DNA of 6,572 nucleotides, from positions 1 through 6,572 of the IMG/VR virus record IMGVR_UViG_2663762849_000010, one strand, 5' to 3'. This DNA comes from a virus. Taxonomy: Duplodnaviria > Heunggongvirae > Uroviricota > Caudoviricetes. The translations under genes were made by a program, and so were the position numbers. Each line of letters begins with the position of its first letter. Positions within the stretch are counted from its first letter, which is position 1. Shown here one piece after another: positions 1 to 6,572 of this stretch. Below the pieces are notes generated by a model. The model saw only the letters and a list, made by a program, of their open reading frames with translations, did no database searches and was not told the origin of the DNA.

Positions 1-1
1 A

Positions 2-277
2 CACATCCTGCGCCTCTAAAATTACGGGGCGCTTTTCCGGCAACGGTTCGTTCCCTTCACATAACCCGGCAGCAACATCCATGAAAAACTGCTTCGCCTG
101 CTTTTTCGCCTCAGCTTCGTAACACTCCAGCGTGGCATCTTCAGTACGGTCAAGACTAATCGCCACATCTGGCAACAACAGTGACGGATACCCACCAATT
201 TCCAGTGCCACAGTAACAGTAATCTTATTCGGGTAATTATTTATCCCTTTAACAACCAGTTCGTATTTTTTCTTCAT
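2..277 (-). CDS. Partial CDS (N-terminal 92 codons, continues past window start); uncharacterized lambdoid-prophage protein directly downstream of the holin, in the position YdfR occupies in prophage Qin; not an endolysin
   Basis: ATG at 277..275 lies 4 nt after the S stop codon, preceded by GGAGAG (SD). Frame is open to position 2. Translation MKKKYELVVKGINNYPNKITVTVALEIGGYPSLLLPDVAISLDRTEDATLECYEAEAKKQAKQFFMDVAAGLCEGNEPLPEKRPVILEAQDV is soluble-looking, with no SAR or lysozyme motifs. The YdfR/DUF1327 comparison is from memory of Qin gene order only. Confidence 0.6.
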   Translation of the reverse strand, partial: MKKKYELVVKGINNYPNKITVTVALEIGGYPSLLLPDVAISLDRTEDATLECYEAEAKKQAKQFFMDVAAGLCEGNEPLPEKRPVILEAQDV

Positions 278-281
278 CGCT

Positions 282-497
282 TTACTCTCCCCGCGCCGCC
301 TTACGACGGTCCTCTCTGATTTTGAAATACAGGTTAGTCAGATATGTCAGCAGCCCAAACAGCAGACTTCCCAGTACGCCTATTGCCGCCCACTGAGACG
401 GGGAAACCCTGTCCAGCAGCTGCAGGAACCAGTAGCCCGTCCCCACCGCTGACGTGGTGTATGACACACCTGTTGTGATTTTTTCCATCTGGTACAT
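282..497 (-). CDS. S: Class II holin / pinholin, S21-like (71 aa), with dual-start motif M-Y-Q-M
   Basis: ATG at 497..495 with GGAG 7 nt upstream; second in-frame Met at codon 4 (488..486) gives the 71/68-aa antiholin/holin pair typical of S21-type pinholins. Hydrophobic core and C-terminal [13 protein letters not shown] tail match the S21/EssQ family as recalled. Confidence 0.85.
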
Positions 498-572
498 ACC
501 CCGTCTCCCGCAATCCGGAAGCTCACAACAACAAGAGGGGCATCAGCTCACACCGACAGCCCCTGCGCATGG

Positions 573-842
573 TTACATCATCATTTCGCCGTCAGGCTGA
601 GGCTCACTGCTACCATCAGGCTGAGACCCGACGCCATCTGAAACAGCACTGTCATCCGCAATGCCTTCCGGCTCCGGAACAGTCGGTGCGCCCAGCAGTT
701 CATCCAGAATGGCATCCACTTCTGCATCAAGACGCTCCTCAAGGTTCTGCCGAAGTTGCTGTTTCAGTGCGCTTCTGACTTCTTCAGAGCGCAGGACTTC
801 CTTCACTGCTTCAGCAGTGACCAGCGATTTTATTTCTGACAT
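573..842 (-). CDS. Hypothetical acidic protein (89 aa), helical N-terminal half and Asp/Glu/Pro/Ser-rich C-terminal tail
   Basis: The track ORF 573..956 begins with TTG; the first ATG (842..840) gives MSEIKSLVTAEAVKEVLRSEEVRSALKQQLRQNLEERLDAEVDAILDELLG... Only a weak SD (GAGAAAA). Sits between nanS-p and S on the same strand. Confidence 0.45.
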   Translation of the reverse strand: MSEIKSLVTAEAVKEVLRSEEVRSALKQQLRQNLEERLDAEVDAILDELLGAPTVPEPEGIADDSAVSDGVGSQPDGSSEPQPDGEMMM

Positions 843-879
843 GGTATTTTCTCGTTGAAAGGTGTTGTTAAGAAAGTTG

Positions 880-1062
880 CTACGGAATGAGAGGCTCTTC
901 GGGTTTTGTTCCGGCTGACTGACTGGCACTGATTTTCTCAGCGGCCCTTTTGTCAATCTGTCTGCGCCAGAAATCTCTCACGACTCTGTACCCACCAGAA
1001 AGAAGATACAGCACACAAACTGCTGTACAGAAATACAACATAATCAGCTGTAAAAATGTCAT
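880..1062 (-). CDS. Small membrane protein (60 aa), one N-terminal transmembrane helix then a basic tail
   Basis: ATG at 1062..1060 with GGAG 7 nt upstream. MTFLQLIMLYFCTAVCVLYLLSGGY is hydrophobic, followed by RVVRDFWRRQIDKRAAEK. Same strand and operon context as the lysis genes. Confidence 0.55.
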   Translation of the reverse strand: MTFLQLIMLYFCTAVCVLYLLSGGYRVVRDFWRRQIDKRAAEKISASQSAGTKPEEPLIP

Positions 1063-1211
1063 TATTCATCTCCATTATTGACATGGTCAATGCCTGCCAG
1101 TAAAAAACTCCTGCATTTTTTGCTCAGCATATTTTTGCTAAGGATGTAGCGACTTCTGCCGCCGGTTCTGGCTCCTTGTTTTCCCTGCCACGGCGGTCTT
1201 TTTTTTCCTGC

Positions 1212-3155
1212 TTACGGGTTATTCACTTCCACTGTTATACTTTCAATCAGCACCGTATACGTCGCCGCTTTTGTGATATCCGTTACACGTAATTTGTCTG
1301 CCGCAAAAGAACCTACCGGAGACTGCGACAGCATGAACGGTGCACCATCCTGACCATCAATCACCGGCGTCACCTGAATGCTGTTATTACCGGCAAAACG
1401 GAAGCCCAGCGTATGCCATTCGTTGTCAAATGCGCCGAATGACCCCAGCTTCGTGTTCTGGTCAGCGTTACCCTTGTGGTACATCACGTTGAGGTCTGTG
1501 GCATCGCTCTGTACGTAAAACGACGCCAGCAGATTGTTACCGGCATTACCTTCCAGTGTGACACCCTGAGGCAATGAAGAAACCGGCCAGTACAGCGCCA
1601 GTGCGTACTGATTAGCCGTAAGCGCGCCATCGAGTTTAAAACGACAACTGACAAGACCACCTTTACCCAGCAGGTCCGCACCATTACCAGCATCATGCTC
1701 AAGGTACCAGGGGGCTCTTCCTGTTTCCTTGGTCAGTTTCATTGCCTTACCCCCGCTGGCTCCGGCATCATCCACGATTTGAGCCTTGCCACCTCCAGCA
1801 GCCCAACCCTGTGGTGTCAACCGTCCTTCAGACTCAGATGCCCGGTAAGCAAATAGCGTACTCATCGTCGTGGTGTCTGCGGGTGGCGTGGACGGTTTTG
1901 ATGGTGTATCAGGTGACGGCTTCTCATCCGGTGGTGTCACGGTCTGCCCGCGCATCAATTCAGCCGTGCGCCCTGCATGGAGCATAATAGCTGAGGCCAG
2001 ACGGTCTGAAATGACGCCCCTGCGTGCCCATGAGCTGAAATGGCTGTCACGCTGTGTCGAAACAAAACTGCCCTGGGTTCGGGATGCTGCACCGTAATAC
2101 CCGACAGCCACAATATCCGGGTCTTCCGCCGGAGCATTCGTTGGCGTGCTCTGTCCATTCTCATCCGTCAGGAACGGTACAAAGAAAATATTCTGTGCTT
2201 CCCTGCCCTTGTAACCGCCATATACCGCCTCATATTTATCGGCGTTAAGATTCTTCCAGTAATACGTGGTGTCACCACAAATCCACGGCACCGAGCCAGC
2301 ACTTCCGCCAACACACTGTGCAGAATATGCAGCCATATCAGCCCTGAACTGCTGCACCATAGTGGTAAACAGGCCGCTGTGCTGCTGACTGCCGTCCGCA
2401 AGATCATTTTCCCCCTGCATCCATACCACGGCCAGAAGCCTGTTTTTCGGGTTCTTCGACAGCGCCGCTTTTGTACGGAAGAGAAAATCCTGATACAGCG
2501 GTTTACCCACTCCCCAGCGGGCTGAATTTGCCGATGCGCCAGACGTTTCGCTGAACGTGCCGTCATTACCCACGGTTAAACCAGACCCGCCACGGCAACA
2601 GGGCACCAGAAGAATCCCGGCATTCTGCGGGATATAAGGCAGCAGTTTTTTGGCAATATGCAGCCCCTGACCGACAGTCCCGTACTGGCCCTTACTCAGG
2701 TCTGCATGAGGATGGTTAAGTGCGCTCATGTCCTGAACATCATGCAGACAGTGGTCTGCCGGAATAACGTCATTGTATGCACAGATATCACCACCCGGCG
2801 TCACAGTGCTGCGACGGGCCAGCTGCTTAATACGGGAGTCAGGGCGATCATAGGTCTCCGGCAGAGGAAGCCCCTCACCATAGGCCATACCGTTCGACTG
2901 CCCGGCCAGGGGAATAACGTAGTAATACTCCGGTTCAGTGGTAGCCACTCCCGGAGAGCCACCAGCCCCTGTGTCGGGCACAACCACAGGCGTGGTCACA
3001 TCACCCTCTGCGGCAATGGCCTGCATCAGTGTATAAGGCGTGATAGCCACAGGACTGCCAAACGGCTGCCAGCCTTCCTTCAGTTTTTGTGTCAGTCGCT
3101 CCGCAAGGTCTGACGGCGACGCCGCCCTGACCACGTCATAGTGTTTAAATGCCAT
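1212..3155 (-). CDS. nanS-p: Prophage 9-O-acetyl-N-acetylneuraminic acid (sialate) O-acetylesterase, NanS-p type: DUF1737-like N-terminal domain, SASA/SGNH esterase core, Pro/Thr/Ser-rich linker, C-terminal beta-rich domain (647 aa)
   Basis: The track ORF starts at a TTG (3185); the real start is taken as ATG 3155..3153, preceded by GGGGAGGAATA (strong SD), giving MAFKHYDVVRAASPSDLAERL... Contains the esterase nucleophile motif IPLAGQSNGMAYGEG, a linker PPDEKPSPDTPSKPSTPPADTTT, and stop TAA at 1214..1212. Architecture matches the large ORF found downstream of stx2 in Stx phages (L0105/Z1466 type) as recalled. Confidence 0.9.
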   Translation of the reverse strand: MAFKHYDVVRAASPSDLAERLTQKLKEGWQPFGSPVAITPYTLMQAIAAEGDVTTPVVVPDTGAGGSPGVATTEPEYYYVIPLAGQSNGMAYGEGLPLPETYDRPDSRIKQLARRSTVTPGGDICAYNDVIPADHCLHDVQDMSALNHPHADLSKGQYGTVGQGLHIAKKLLPYIPQNAGILLVPCCRGGSGLTVGNDGTFSETSGASANSARWGVGKPLYQDFLFRTKAALSKNPKNRLLAVVWMQGENDLADGSQQHSGLFTTMVQQFRADMAAYSAQCVGGSAGSVPWICGDTTYYWKNLNADKYEAVYGGYKGREAQNIFFVPFLTDENGQSTPTNAPAEDPDIVAVGYYGAASRTQGSFVSTQRDSHFSSWARRGVISDRLASAIMLHAGRTAELMRGQTVTPPDEKPSPDTPSKPSTPPADTTTMSTLFAYRASESEGRLTPQGWAAGGGKAQIVDDAGASGGKAMKLTKETGRAPWYLEHDAGNGADLLGKGGLVSCRFKLDGALTANQYALALYWPVSSLPQGVTLEGNAGNNLLASFYVQSDATDLNVMYHKGNADQNTKLGSFGAFDNEWHTLGFRFAGNNSIQVTPVIDGQDGAPFMLSQSPVGSFAADKLRVTDITKAATYTVLIESITVEVNNP

Positions 3156-3243
3156 TATTCCTCCCCTTTCCGGGATTTTCCTCAACAGTTGCGGGCCACG
3201 GTCCGGCTACACGGAGAATCAAAAGAGGAGAACCGCAGCCCGC

Positions 3244-3274
3244 AAAACGAAAAAGGCCGCGCAGTTGCGCAGCC
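3244..3274 (-). terminator. Intrinsic terminator-like hairpin on the minus strand, about 90 nt upstream of the nanS-p start
   Basis: Minus-strand RNA GGCUGCGC-AACU-GCGCGGCC (8-bp stem with one G.U pair) followed by UUUUUCGUUUU. The plus-strand version has a C-A mismatch and no U tract. Confidence 0.5.
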
Positions 3275-3338
3275 TTATCACAGATGGTAAAAATCAGAAC
3301 ACGATAATAAAAATACCTGATGTATATTCATGCGACCC

Positions 3339-3366
3339 GCCCGCCACTCACTGCGGGCTTTTTTTT
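3339..3366 (+). terminator. Strong intrinsic terminator on the plus strand
   Basis: GCCCGC-CACTCACT-GCGGGC followed by eight T (3359..3366). On the minus strand the hairpin follows an A-run and has no U tract, so it is plus-specific. No annotated plus-strand gene lies upstream. Confidence 0.55.
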
Positions 3367-3374
3367 GCCCATAG

Positions 3375-3401
3375 AAAAGCCCCTCCGGAGAGGGGCTTTT
3401 T
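3375..3401. terminator. Bidirectional terminator hairpin
   Basis: AAAA-GCCCCTC-CGGA-GAGGGGC-TTTTT: 7-bp GC stem flanked by an A4 and a T5 run, so a U tract follows the hairpin on either strand. Confidence 0.5.
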
Positions 3402-3641
3402 ACAGTGGTAGTGTAGACAATTTTGCATGGTGCCGGGTGCCTCCCGGTGAGTTCAGTATCAGCACCTGAACCCGCACAGAAAGGATAAGGGTCGGTGACA
3501 AAACACCAGTTGCTGATTGCCCCTCCGCTTAGGGGGATTCACCATGCCAGTTTCTTTTAACAAACTCCCCGCAAACCAGACAACAGTCAACCGCCTGAAT
3601 TGTGAGGTATTTAAAAATTTCAACGGGTAACTGATACCCTG

Positions 3642-3803
3642 CTAATCGCCTGATGCTTTCTTTTTCAGCAACGGGAAAGCAACAACCACCACACCCGCCA
3701 CCAGCACACCGTCAGCCAGCACTGACATTATCCGGCTGCTGAAGTCCACCATCACCACCATCACCACCAGAAACAGCAGGAGCGCAACCACAGCCAGACG
3801 CAT
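3642..3803 (-). CDS. Possible small hydrophobic peptide (53 aa, two predicted transmembrane segments) directly downstream of the TerB-like gene
   Basis: ATG at 3803..3801, 8 nt after the TerB-like stop; translation MRLAVVALLLFLVVMVVMVDFSSRIMSVLADGVLVAGVVVVAFPLLKKKASGD, stop TAG at 3644..3642. No good SD (possible coupling). Below the 60-aa cut-off of the supplied track. Contains rare codons CGG and ATA. Confidence 0.3.
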   Translation of the reverse strand: MRLAVVALLLFLVVMVVMVDFSSRIMSVLADGVLVAGVVVVAFPLLKKKASGD

Positions 3804-3811
3804 TTTTACCG

Positions 3812-4243
3812 TCACAGATGATTCTCCAGACGAAGGCCCAGAACACCGGCAATCTCTTCCAGCACCTTGCGCTCTTCCGGCTCTATTTCGCCGTCTGCTT
3901 CGGCAATGGCCACCGCCACATCCAGCACGTCTTCCGCTTCACGCGTATCGTGTTTCACATCCTCGATCTCACGTAACGCCGCTCGACGACCAATTTTAAA
4001 GTTCGTATCCAGCTGACCGATAATGGTTGCGCTAATCGCATTAATTTCTGACGTAAACGCGGACAACGCAGGCTGGTTACGCAAGACCTGCTCGATCTTC
4101 GCTTTCTCTGAAGCCTCACATTCACCATCTGCATAGGCCACCAGATAGGCAGCATTAATAACCGCCTGTGCCAGATCACGTTTCTCAAACTTTTTAATTT
4201 CCACTGCCGCTCGGCGGGCTTTTTTACCAAAAATACCAAACAT
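3812..4243 (-). CDS. TerB-like (tellurite-resistance TerB family) protein, 143 aa
   Basis: Start taken at ATG 4243..4241 with AAGGAA SD 7 nt upstream; the upstream ATG at 4315 has poorer context and would add 24 non-domain residues. Two repeats of the acidic TerB-type motif (AAYLVAYADGECEASEKAKIEQVL and VLDVAVAIAEADGEIEPEERKVLEEIAGVLGL) and an N-terminus MFGIFGKKARRAAVE resembling TerB N-termini, judged from memory of the family. Confidence 0.7.
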   Translation of the reverse strand: MFGIFGKKARRAAVEIKKFEKRDLAQAVINAAYLVAYADGECEASEKAKIEQVLRNQPALSAFTSEINAISATIIGQLDTNFKIGRRAALREIEDVKHDTREAEDVLDVAVAIAEADGEIEPEERKVLEEIAGVLGLRLENHL

Positions 4244-4375
4244 CGTGACGTTCCTTTGGGTGGGTGAGCCAACGCCCGGGAGCGATCTGCCCACAGAGAA
4301 AGTCACACTGACCATTCCGTAAGCTCACCCCCGAAAGGCTCTGTGGTTGATATGCGCCGGGCGTGGCGCGGATAC

Positions 4376-4402
4376 AAAAAAGGCCCGCAAAAGCGAGCCG
4401 GG
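4376..4402 (-). terminator. Intrinsic terminator immediately downstream of the tRNA cluster
   Basis: Minus-strand RNA GGCUCGC-UUUU-GCGGGCC (7-bp stem with one G.U) followed by UUUUUU; begins about 12 nt after the CCA end of the last tRNA. Confidence 0.65.
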
Positions 4403-4413
4403 AAAAATAAGTC

Positions 4414-4490
4414 TGGCGCGTTGTACTGGATTCGAACCAGTGACCGATTGCTTAGAAGGCAATTGCTCTGTCCGGCTGAGCTAACAACGC
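4414..4490 (-). tRNA. argO: tRNA-Arg (anticodon UCU, decodes AGA/AGG), 77 nt with encoded CCA
   Basis: Hand-folded cloverleaf: acceptor GCGUUGU/ACAACGC, D-arm GCUC/GAGC, anticodon stem AUUGC/GCAAU with loop CUUCUAA, T-loop UUCGAAU, 3' GCCA. Symbol assigned by synteny with the ileZ-argN-argO cluster of Stx phages, not verified. Confidence 0.88.
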
Positions 4491-4504
4491 AGAATGCCGA
4501 TAAA

Positions 4505-4581
4505 TGGACCGCCATCGAGGACTCGAACCCCGCGCAACCAGCTTCGAAGGCTGGCGCTCTTTCCTGATGAGCTAATGGCGG
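4505..4581 (-). tRNA. argN: tRNA-Arg (anticodon UCG, decodes CGA/CGG), 77 nt with encoded CCA
   Basis: Cloverleaf: acceptor CCGCCAU/AUGGCGG, D-arm GCUC/GAGC, anticodon stem CCAGC/GCUGG with loop CUUCGAA, T-arm CGGGG/CCUCG with loop UUCGAGU. Unusual C1 and U73 discriminator noted. Symbol by synteny only. Confidence 0.8.
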
Positions 4582-4588
4582 TATGTGA

Positions 4589-4664
4589 TGGTGGCCCTTG
4601 CTGGATTTGAACCAGCGACCTGGCGATTATGAGTCGCTCGCTCTCACCACTGAGCTAAAGGGCC
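4589..4664 (-). tRNA. ileZ: tRNA-Ile2-like (anticodon CAU, presumed lysidine-modified to read AUA), 76 nt with encoded CCA
   Basis: Cloverleaf: acceptor GGCCCUU/AAGGGCC, D-loop AGUGGUGA, anticodon loop CUCAUAA, T-loop UUCAAAU, discriminator A. Closely resembles E. coli tRNA-Ile2 (ileX) rather than initiator or elongator tRNA-Met, judged from memory of that sequence. Confidence 0.85.
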
Positions 4665-4670
4665 GGGCAT

Positions 4671-4702
4671 AGGATAATAACGGTACGTAACTAATTCTGC
4701 AA
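4671..4702 (-). promoter_or_regulatory. Candidate sigma-70 promoter for the tRNA cluster
   Basis: On the minus strand TTGCAG (-35), 17-nt spacer, TATTAT (-10), ending about 9 nt before the mature 5' end of tRNA-Ile. Hexamer match only. Confidence 0.4.
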
Positions 4703-4713
4703 TCTCATCCGTT

Positions 4714-5040
4714 TCAAACGATTAAATCCTGAACTTCCCTGACTGTCTGCTCAAAACGTCCGGTCTCCAGTTCAACGCCAATCGCACGACGCCCGAGCGC
4801 CAGTGCCGCTTTTACCGTTGAACCTGAGCCCATAAAAAAATCTGCAACCTGGTCTCCCGGACGACTGCTCGCGTTGATTATCTGCTGCAACATTTCTGCC
4901 GGTTTTTCGCACGGATGTTTCCCTGGATAGTACTGCACCGGTTTATACGTCCACACATCCGTGTACGGCACCTGCGCCGTCACGCCAAAATACCGCCGCA
5001 GTCGGCATTCACAACCACCAGCGCATTTAACGTTCAGGCA
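4714..5040 (-). pseudogene. 3' remnant of a beta-class N6-adenine/N4-cytosine DNA methyltransferase: C-terminal AdoMet-binding part only, N-terminal DPPY catalytic part absent
   Basis: Translation contains HPCEKP and DFFMGSGST(V)...GRRAIGVELE (FxGxG motif I). There is no in-frame ATG upstream of the internal Met just before the motif; the open frame runs back through the tR' terminator to the Q stop codon. Stop TGA at 4716..4714. Confidence 0.5.
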
Positions 5041-5067
5041 CAAAAAAACCCGCTCATCGGCGGGTTT
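5041..5067 (-). terminator. tR'-like intrinsic terminator downstream of Q
   Basis: Minus-strand RNA AAA-CCCGC-CGAUGA-GCGGG-UUUUUUU; on the plus strand the hairpin is followed by only TTTAAG, so it is minus-specific. Its 3' end lies about 85 nt after the Q stop. Confidence 0.65.
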
Positions 5068-5160
5068 AAGCTGTGTGGCGTAGTAACCACTCTTAACATA
5101 CTGACATACTTTTTGCGGACCGCGCTAATCATTTTTTACTTTTTTGGGCAGCCAGTCGTC
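5068..5160 (-). promoter_or_regulatory. Putative late promoter pR' / Q-utilization (qut) region overlapping the 3' end of Q
   Basis: Position only: the Q stop-to-terminator interval is too short to hold a promoter plus leader, so the promoter probably overlaps the Q 3' end. No convincing -35/-10 pair found (weak candidates ACGACT and AAAAAT/TATGTT). Confidence 0.3.
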
Positions 5161-5517
5161 CATCTCCAGCCTTACACCCAGCATCGACAGACATCCGTCA
5201 ATAAATCCTTCAGCAATCTGCATCTCAATTCGTATTGCCTTTTCGCTCTTCTTTCTTGTTCTGGCAATCTGCCTTTTTGATATGCGCAGCAGATAATGAG
5301 CTACCAGCAGCGAATACTCGTCCGGTTTTTTCTTCTTCAGGCGCGTAAGGCAGTTTTCGATGATAAGGCCGTCATCATCGCTGCAGGCCGGGCGAGGTTT
5401 AGCGGTGGATGGTAAAAGGCCTTTAAATCCAGCAGCTATCGGAGAATAGTCCACCCCGGCGTTACCACTTGCCGCCCATGCCCCCCAGCGTTCGAGAACC
5501 ATCTGAATATCACGCAT
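5125..5517 (-). CDS. Q: Late-gene antiterminator Q (phage 82 / Stx-phage type), 130 aa
   Basis: The track ORF begins at a TTG (5532); the first ATG (5517..5515) has GGAG 7 nt upstream and gives MRDIQMVLERWGAWAASGNAGVDYSPIAAGFKG... Stop TAG at 5127..5125. Basic C-terminal region; located just upstream of the tR'-like terminator and tRNA cluster, the canonical Q position. Confidence 0.85.
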   Translation of the reverse strand: MRDIQMVLERWGAWAASGNAGVDYSPIAAGFKGLLPSTAKPRPACSDDDGLIIENCLTRLKKKKPDEYSLLVAHYLLRISKRQIARTRKKSEKAIRIEMQIAEGFIDGCLSMLGVRLEMDDWLPKKVKND

Positions 5518-5534
5518 CAACTTTCTCCACAAAA

Positions 5535-6530
5535 TCAGGACAGCACACCAATCGCCAGCGCGCGATCGATAAAACGAAATATCAGCTCCAGTTGGGAACC
5601 ATACTTATCTTCAAATGCCACGGTATCCGCATGCAGTTTGTCATGGTGTTTTCTGCACAACGGCAACACAAAAAGGTCATGCGATTTTGTCCCCATACCA
5701 CCCTGGCCGTGACCAATCAGATGATGCGGATCATCAGCTGGCTTTCCACAACATGCACACGGCTGCGTCTTAACCCAGCGAGTGTACTTTTCATTAACCC
5801 AGCGACGACGTTTGGGGCGTAACATAAAAGACTCCGGCGACTCCGGATCCACTTTCAGCGCCAGCACCTTTTTCGCTTTATCCCGGATAATACTGGTGGC
5901 AGTAACCGAAGGCACAAGGTCACTCTCCCGGGTGACAGACGGCAAAACAGGCTTCGGTAATCTCAGGGCCTTACGGGCTGCACTTTCCGGTAAGGCATCC
6001 GCCAGGTCATTACGAACCAGCCACCAGCACAGTTCCGGCATTGTCACAACGTGACTGTCATCAAAACCAAGATCACGGCGCACAACAGACAACACCCAGC
6101 GGGCACAGTTATCCGTTGCCATTGATTCCAGCCGTTCCGTGAACTGGTCACGGAGGAGATTGTCACAGTGCCAGCACAGACGGATTGCGCCCGGAGCGTG
6201 TCGCATTGTGGTCATGTTCTCGCTGTGCCATCCGGAATGAGGCCACTGGCAGCCTTTTTCACGAAGTAACCAGCTTTCAAGACATTCCACGCCACCAGCA
6301 CGACGGATCACTGCCTCATGGCGGAACACGGCCCGAACGGCAGGATCATCCGCCAGCGGTTGTGATGCCGCCGGAACGGCACCACTGGCGAAAGATGAAT
6401 AACGCTCCGGCTCAGGCTCCAGCAGGACACGCCCCTGCATAAACAGGGGCATCAGCTCTGAACCTGGCCTGAACAATACGATCCCCATACGCGGGGCAAT
6501 TTCAGGGGTCAGTAGTGCTCTCACAGTCAC
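5535..6530 (-). CDS. DUF968 / YdfU-like prophage protein with C-terminal HNH-like Cys/His motif (about 330 aa)
   Basis: C-terminal motif CACCGKPADDPHHLIGHGQ...LPLCRKHHDKLH. Immediately upstream of Q, as ydfU is to quuQ in prophage Qin (recalled). Start uncertain: GTG at 6530 or 6524 (GAGG SD 5 nt upstream of the latter); an in-frame stop lies at 6557..6555. Confidence 0.75.
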   Translation of the reverse strand: MTVRALLTPEIAPRMGIVLFRPGSELMPLFMQGRVLLEPEPERYSSFASGAVPAASQPLADDPAVRAVFRHEAVIRRAGGVECLESWLLREKGCQWPHSGWHSENMTTMRHAPGAIRLCWHCDNLLRDQFTERLESMATDNCARWVLSVVRRDLGFDDSHVVTMPELCWWLVRNDLADALPESAARKALRLPKPVLPSVTRESDLVPSVTATSIIRDKAKKVLALKVDPESPESFMLRPKRRRWVNEKYTRWVKTQPCACCGKPADDPHHLIGHGQGGMGTKSHDLFVLPLCRKHHDKLHADTVAFEDKYGSQLELIFRFIDRALAIGVLS

Positions 6531-6572
6531 CTCAATGAACGGTATCGAGCAGCTTTAACAGCTCAGGAAATC

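Follow-up and report, generated by a model that had tools for sequence, protein, structure and literature searches.

What do lambdoid phages carry at the position where Shiga-toxin (Stx) phages carry stxA and stxB? The question is raised by IMG/VR record IMGVR_UViG_2663762849_000010, of which positions 1 to 6,572, the whole stretch analysed here and hereafter called the window, include a TerB-like gene and a small hydrophobic peptide gene lodged between a phage tRNA cluster and nanS-p. The two genes almost certainly constitute the phage tciA/tciB module, whose names derive from phage P1. The pair is no discovery, since it is already catalogued, as uncharacterised, in Pfam, PHROGs and RefSeq; the RefSeq names are "tellurite resistance TerB family protein" and "DUF3927 family protein". 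As for what the pair does, the explanation that we favour, with somewhat less than even confidence, is that tciAB encodes a lytic-phase, membrane-associated two-protein module.

The first gene, tciA, encodes a TerB protein of 143 amino acids (aa) on the minus strand (3812-4243, from ATG 4243 to the TGA at 3814-3812). Its frame remains open up to an ATG at 4315, which would give an open reading frame (ORF) of 167 aa. Because all homologues begin at the methionine of MFG.. and RefSeq gives a length of 432 nucleotides (nt), the start at ATG 4243, which has an AAGGAA Shine-Dalgarno sequence upstream, is the correct one. The assignment to the TerB family made in the original prediction is borne out by the Pfam TerB profile (PF05099, 58.5 bits against a cut-off of 24.4, residues 50-162 of the 167-aa ORF), by PHROG 632 (residues 1-143, E=3e-69) and by the comparison of a 20-homologue profile with the solved Klebsiella TerB, 2JXU (E=8e-15, residues 13-137). 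The structure prediction that had been proposed alongside the profile search also agrees, the AlphaFold2 (AF2) model being all-helical with a mean predicted local distance difference test score (pLDDT) of 88.9. In a Foldseek comparison of this model with the PDB the top matches are the TerB-like entries 2h5n and 2ou3, with weak E-values and a template modelling (TM) score of about 0.55, and the fold is therefore assigned mainly from the sequence-profile matches. Two paired acidic ADGE...E motifs (A-D-G-x(5)-E) are invariant among the homologues (D39, G40 and E46; D117, G118 and E124). The N-terminus is a basic amphipathic helix: residues 1-22 have a net charge of +6, and nowhere else in the protein is the helical hydrophobic moment as high. 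The remainder is acidic, with a net charge of -13. A pairwise ratio of nonsynonymous to synonymous substitution rates (dN/dS) of 0.06 indicates that the gene is under strong purifying selection.

The family name, together with the homology to TerB of the ter operons, might suggest a genuine tellurite resistance determinant. However, terC, terD, terE and terZ are found neither in the window nor beside the pair in the enterobacterial loci examined, and in the ter clusters of R478 and of enterohaemorrhagic Escherichia coli (EHEC) TerB alone is not known to suffice for resistance. With the remaining ter system absent, we rejected tellurite resistance as the function of the pair and regard it as most improbable.

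Downstream of TerB, a possible peptide of 53 aa with two transmembrane segments had been predicted, starting at an ATG 8 nt after the TerB stop. The ORF stands, and so does the idea of a small hydrophobic partner. It matches DUF3927 (PF13064, 70.8 bits against 25) and PHROG 1470, annotated as 'TciB-like', and the exact 57-aa sequence is present on 443 contigs. Furthermore, a hidden Markov model built from aligned homologues detects a TciB-like ORF right after TerB in 164 of the 167 related loci, a figure dominated by two allele groups, as these loci were gathered with single-protein queries and are mostly close relatives. The start did not stand. The conserved one is GTG 3815, which overlaps the TerB stop (GTGA, 3815-3812) and has a GGAG 8 nt upstream, and only a minority of relatives have the ATG at 3803. 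In the P1-type allele an ATG overlaps the TerB stop by one base (TAATG). The tciB gene (3642-3815, minus strand) thus most likely starts at GTG 3815 and encodes 57 aa, the alternative from ATG 3803 being 53 aa, and its translation is probably coupled to that of tciA, given the GTGA stop/start overlap.

The hydropathy of the peptide, which is the only basis of the two-transmembrane reading, gives two hydrophobic stretches with DFSSR between them. Residues K4, R6, D24-F25, D35-G36, P48 and K51 are conserved; both the N- and C-terminal tails are basic, and conserved Asp residues lie in or beside the hydrophobic segments. The pairwise dN/dS of 0.43 indicates that tciB is under purifying selection as well. 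The allele of the window contains a 9-nt in-frame tandem duplication at about 3751-3768 (minus strand; GTGGTGATG twice), which lengthens the first hydrophobic segment by VVM; most homologues are without it, but it recurs in a few further alleles of E. coli.

Independent support for the pairing of the two genes comes from a set of diverse phages picked by hand. TerB homologues are found in 131 phage records, strictly virulent phages included, namely Erwinia and Salmonella jumbo phages, N4-like phages of Salmonella, Escherichia, Vibrio and Pseudomonas, and other Pseudomonas phages. A DUF3927 gene with an overlapping or abutting start follows TerB in P1, the Erwinia jumbo phage ChrisDB, the N4-like Salmonella phage SP-076 and Pantoea phage LIET2, and the same arrangement is seen in one Klebsiella phage, one Actinobacillus phage and Pseudomonas phage ZY21, the pairing persisting down to 32% TerB identity. 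The P1 proteins themselves are 41% (TciA, over the full length) and 44% (TciB) identical to those of the window. In phages without DUF3927, another membrane protein usually lies beside TerB: a family of 67-73 aa with a single transmembrane segment follows it in Pseudomonas phages AF (locus L005, 1932-2153) and Zuri (L178, 1943-2146), and a hydrophobic ORF of 51 aa adjoins it in a Paracoccus phage. The AF/Zuri family is unrelated to DUF3927 and has a conserved C..YG.QTERET.YA.FVGCMV motif, and AF also has a GTGA overlap.

In Vibrio phage vB_VpaP-MS02 (L181, 378-1397), the gene directly upstream of TerB encodes a membrane protein of the TerC/Alx family, and the two form a phage-borne TerC-TerB pair. 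This arrangement bears on a further explanation, in which TerB and its membrane partner would tune the ions of the infected cell, taking part in the homeostasis of Mn2+, Ca2+ or similar cations as has been proposed for TerB and TerC of the ter operons. The invariant paired acidic motifs of TerB and the conserved Asp in the hydrophobic stretches of TciB would be in keeping with such a role. Nevertheless, a 55-aa peptide is unlikely to be a transporter unless it is oligomeric, and the enterobacterial versions are without TerC, so that we consider this explanation quite improbable.

The genomic position of the pair was defined by alignment with phage VT2-Sakai. In blastn comparisons, window positions 4815 to 4365 correspond to the tRNAs with their terminator and a few nucleotides past it, and positions 3605 to 274 to the VT2-Sakai sequence that begins just 3' of stx2B and runs by way of nanS-p as far as the holin. 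The tciAB cassette therefore replaces stx2AB, within about 20 nt, and the placement of the pair in the stxAB slot, between the tRNAs and nanS-p, was correctly predicted. A look at what occupies this slot in relatives, as had been suggested, gave stx2AB in VT2-Sakai and nothing in phage PPwrbA_EH2201, in which window positions 274 to 3622 and 4378 to 4815 align contiguously. Another match (H29) lies in a different prophage of its record and is uninformative on the slot. The blastn junctions with these two phages delimit an exchangeable cassette of 755 bp (3623-4377, minus strand), composed of a 134-nt leader, tciA, tciB and a 19-nt tail.

The unit had also been described as bracketed by intrinsic terminators, with the usual look of a moron. 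All three hairpins exist, but they are features of the phage backbone or of a small RNA (sRNA) and lie outside the cassette; the upstream one (4399-4382) is kept in both the Stx phage and the empty-slot phage, and none of the bracketing terminators falls within the inserted segment, 3623-4377. A sigma-70 consensus scan of the 134-nt leader gave no match, this being a crude scan that weak or non-sigma-70 promoters could escape. The strict picture of a moron, with a promoter and a terminator of its own, is thus unsupported, the evidence on its promoter half being suggestive.

In many E. coli prophages TerB has been deleted from the slot and no more than the 3' end of the DUF3927 gene survives, with iraM, whose product is annotated as an anti-adapter protein, on the opposite strand; examples from E. 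coli chromosomes are loci L169 (3524-3610) and L170 (3486-3617). Decayed loci are of relevance to the possibility that TciB is a holin-like or depolarising micro-protein which TerB restrains or times, the pair acting as a toxin with its regulator or as a device of lysis timing. At two decayed loci the peptide is truncated along with the loss of TerB, and no intact lone TciB was seen, which speaks for this possibility, but only these two remnants were looked at. The peptide has an appropriate build (some 55 aa with two hydrophobic segments, conserved Asp residues embedded in the membrane and a C-terminal tail that is basic), coupling to TerB would fix the stoichiometry, and in lambdoid phages, as in the Actinobacillus phage, the lysis genes come right after the pair. 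Yet a Pfam search returned no holin or toxin family match for TciB, and the pair is not beside lysis genes in P1, N4-like or jumbo phages. Moreover, tciA, tciB and tciC of P1 are non-essential by CRISPR interference (CRISPRi), the knock-down leaving plaquing unaffected (PMC10695390). Overall, we find a toxin or lysis-timing role rather unlikely.

The lytic-phase membrane module that we favour takes its starting point from the probable mode of transcription. The Q antiterminator gene (5125-5532, minus strand; PF06530, E=3e-52) lies upstream of the cassette and is followed by a segment, 5099 to 5037, with 84% identity to the VT2-Sakai stretch immediately 3' of Q, terminator included; a strong terminator hairpin with a T-run is found inside it, at 5067-5046. 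This segment of the minus strand, at about 5037-5099, presumably represents pR' and tR' and would give rise to a short StxS-like leader transcript. Since the cassette has no recognisable promoter and lies downstream of Q, pR' and tR', tciAB would be transcribed mainly by Q-modified RNA polymerase after induction, like stx2, with a read-through that would cover the tRNAs, tciAB, nanS-p and the lysis genes. In P1 the pair is located behind C1-controlled ban promoters, in the C1-repressed ban operon. The late position without a detectable promoter, the ban location in P1 and the carriage of the pair by virulent phages thus together point to use in the lytic phase.

In the infected cell, TerB would sit at the cytoplasmic face of the membrane in a complex with TciB, its anchor or partner there. 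The conserved pairing, the membrane proteins that neighbour TerB in other phages and the charge distribution of the two proteins support a membrane-associated complex of this kind without proving it. The complex would be a non-essential accessory of the lytic cycle, and most likely it would protect or condition the cell's inner membrane during infection, either by excluding superinfecting phages or pore-forming colicins, or by preserving membrane integrity and ion balance up to holin triggering. Published work describes TerB as amphitropic and associated with membranes, and it ties the plasmid ter cluster to phage inhibition and colicin resistance, phenotypes with which such a task would agree by analogy.

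Several observations weigh against this reading. The two-transmembrane hairpin is a putative topology, for AF2 models the peptide monomer as one continuous long helix, a result that does not discriminate between a hairpin and a single helix. No genuine natural fusion of TerB and TciB was found when such fusions were sought among the DUF3927 family, for which 1.84 billion representatives yield 163 clusters at 50% identity, all stand-alone but for read-throughs and chimeras. The TerB proteins of phages PMBT3 and K481 have no membrane neighbour, and the crudeness of the promoter scan may leave room for expression of tciAB in the lysogen. Finally, the literature consulted on tciA and tciB contains no experiment tying either gene to a phenotype, the name having been given by homology only. 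The authors describing the N4-like phage Pollock regard the role of TciA in a lytic phage as unknown. Among the fusion candidates that were discarded, three (P0127, P0185 and P0351) are frameshift read-throughs and two (P0300 and P0372) are chimeras with truncated unrelated genes.

Expression in the lysogen is central to an alternative in which the pair serves defence or lysogenic conversion: TerB would sense the membrane perturbation caused by an incoming phage and the peptide would act as effector, to the benefit of the lysogen. TerB domains are indeed part of three validated defence systems, Bunzi, Shango and Dionysus, for which a membrane-surveillance role has been put forward; a partner as small and hydrophobic as TciB could make the membrane permeable, and many intact copies under purifying selection reside in E. 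coli prophages. Against this, PADLOC gave only PDC-S48, at 14.6 bits and therefore at chance level, with no match for the peptide, and the partner genes of Bunzi, Shango and Dionysus were not found in the window. Besides, no promoter was found for a cassette that sits behind tR' in a late operon, strictly virulent phages carry the pair too, and P1 has it in an operon repressed by C1. The suggestion of a lysogenic-conversion, abortive-infection or defence module is weakened by these facts. That of superinfection exclusion fares better in one respect, for it is possible during lytic growth, its setting in the lysogen being weakened by the same evidence. We therefore see defence by the lysogen as an unlikely explanation, if one to keep in mind.

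The lytic-phase module may also be put in a more general form, which we advance as speculation and would not expect to hold. Phage TerB proteins with a micro-membrane partner, be it TciB, the analogous small transmembrane proteins or TerC, would be a general guard of the inner membrane in the lytic phase, protecting temperate and virulent phages alike against the entry of superinfecting genomes, pore-forming colicins and the pore-forming abortive-infection effectors of the host. In a variant of this proposal, they might be a decoy for host TerB-based membrane surveillance.

The remainder of the window provides the context of the cassette. All of its genes are on the minus strand and make up the late-regulatory-to-lysis region of a lambdoid prophage. 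A DUF968 protein is encoded upstream of Q (6530-5535). Between tR' and the tRNAs lies an ORF of 109 aa (4714-5043), a truncated N6/N4 DNA methylase by profile match, which covers only positions 135-219 of the 221 of the profile, the C-terminal third, and is a remnant. The tRNA cluster (4414-4664) consists of tRNA(CAT), tRNA-Arg(TCG) and tRNA-Arg(TCT) and is followed by the intrinsic terminator of the backbone (4382-4399). The first tRNA (4589-4664) is Met(CAT) according to ARAGORN and tRNA-Ile in the RefSeq homologues. Such a Met/Ile(CAT) ambiguity is usual for the lysidine-modified tRNA-Ile2, the ileZ-type tRNA of Stx phages. Adjacency of tciAB to tRNA genes, of differing identities, recurs in unrelated phages, namely lambdoid prophages, JLK-2012, P1, ChrisDB and ZY21; apart from the cluster in the window, such tRNAs are located at 4964-5197 in locus L001, 1616-1769 and 3201-3276 in L003, 886-1354 and 2947-3277 in L004, and 1469-1546 in L179. 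This adjacency could reflect shared accessory regions, or tRNA genes serving as recombination junctions.

On the other side, an sRNA of the STnc100/PasD family (3367-3576, minus strand; Rfam RF02076, 144 bits against a gathering score of 47) lies directly 3' of the cassette, and the hairpin at 3375-3401 is its 3' end. STnc100 is a known prophage sRNA family, which a 2026 preprint connects to the PasD sRNAs of enteropathogenic E. coli (EPEC) and EHEC. Back to back with the sRNA terminator (3393-3380, minus strand) there is a terminator-like hairpin with a T8 run on the plus strand (3339-3358), and in relatives RefSeq places small plus-strand pseudogene fragments nearby; a convergent gene has probably decayed here. 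About 450 nt of non-coding sequence separate tciB from the gene of a nanS-p-type sialate O-acetylesterase (DUF1737 + SASA + DUF6645; 1212-3185, minus strand), homologous to orf42 of VT2-Sakai, and genes for DUF1378, DUF826 and a class II holin follow downstream on the same strand.

The pair is a common one. The 602-nt unit, at no less than 80% of its length, is present in 789 of 5426 complete E. coli genomes, about 15%, at up to 8 places per genome; O157:H7, O103 and O111 are among the carriers, and multiple copies are frequent in EHEC. Escherichia phage JLK-2012 carries the same cassette, annotated tciA/tciB, with 95% nucleotide identity. The TerB domain is itself widespread, being found in many phages and several anti-phage systems as well as in DjlA and the ter operons. 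Of this domain tciAB offers a minimal form, one TerB protein with one membrane peptide of 57 aa. Being minimal, under strong purifying selection, carried by roughly one complete E. coli genome in seven and swappable with stx2AB, it is convenient for probing what TerB does. The cassette is also useful for asking which non-toxin cargo lambdoid phages express alongside Shiga toxin, and if the general inner-membrane guard were true, it would be the first clean experimental handle on the role of the TerB domain.

A comparison with known systems places tciAB as follows. With Bunzi, Shango and Dionysus it shares the TerB domain, and those systems sometimes have transmembrane or pore-forming partners. 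In contrast to them, the present pair has no PADLOC match and no helicase or ATPase, MAEBL or four-transmembrane pore-forming partner, and it is encoded by phages, virulent ones included. The TerB of terZABCDEF (2JXU) is of the same fold and size and has the same paired acidic motifs, the profile match (E=8e-15) extending over nearly the whole length; there the likeness ends, as the window and the annotated E. coli neighbourhoods are without TerC, TerD, TerE and TerZ, and the partner is the 57-aa peptide. The stx2AB cassette of VT2-Sakai/933W occupies the same slot, with the same tRNAs and terminator upstream and the same sRNA and nanS-p downstream, and both cassettes presumably depend on Q and pR'. 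The proteins, however, are unrelated, stx2AB encoding an AB5 toxin, secreted and directed at the animal host, and tciAB intracellular or membrane proteins.

The P1 tciA-tciB(-tciC) annotation reportedly goes back to Lobocka et al. in 2004 (GenBank AF234172). P1 and the window share a TerB protein of about 141-143 aa followed by a DUF3927 peptide gene that overlaps its stop, with tRNA genes adjacent, and in both the pair consists of accessory genes of uncharacterised function, the non-essentiality being that of P1. They differ in that only P1 has a third gene, tciC (35 aa, a single transmembrane segment), no TciC-like ORF being found in the window, and in that the pair of P1 belongs to the C1-repressed ban operon and that of the window to what is probably a Q-dependent late position. 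Closest of all are JLK-2012 and the lambdoid prophages of EHEC and other E. coli, whose pairs are 95-100% identical in nucleotide sequence and occupy the same slot from the tRNAs to nanS-p, with allelic differences only: the VVM duplication in TciB of the window, other neighbouring tRNAs and other Q types.

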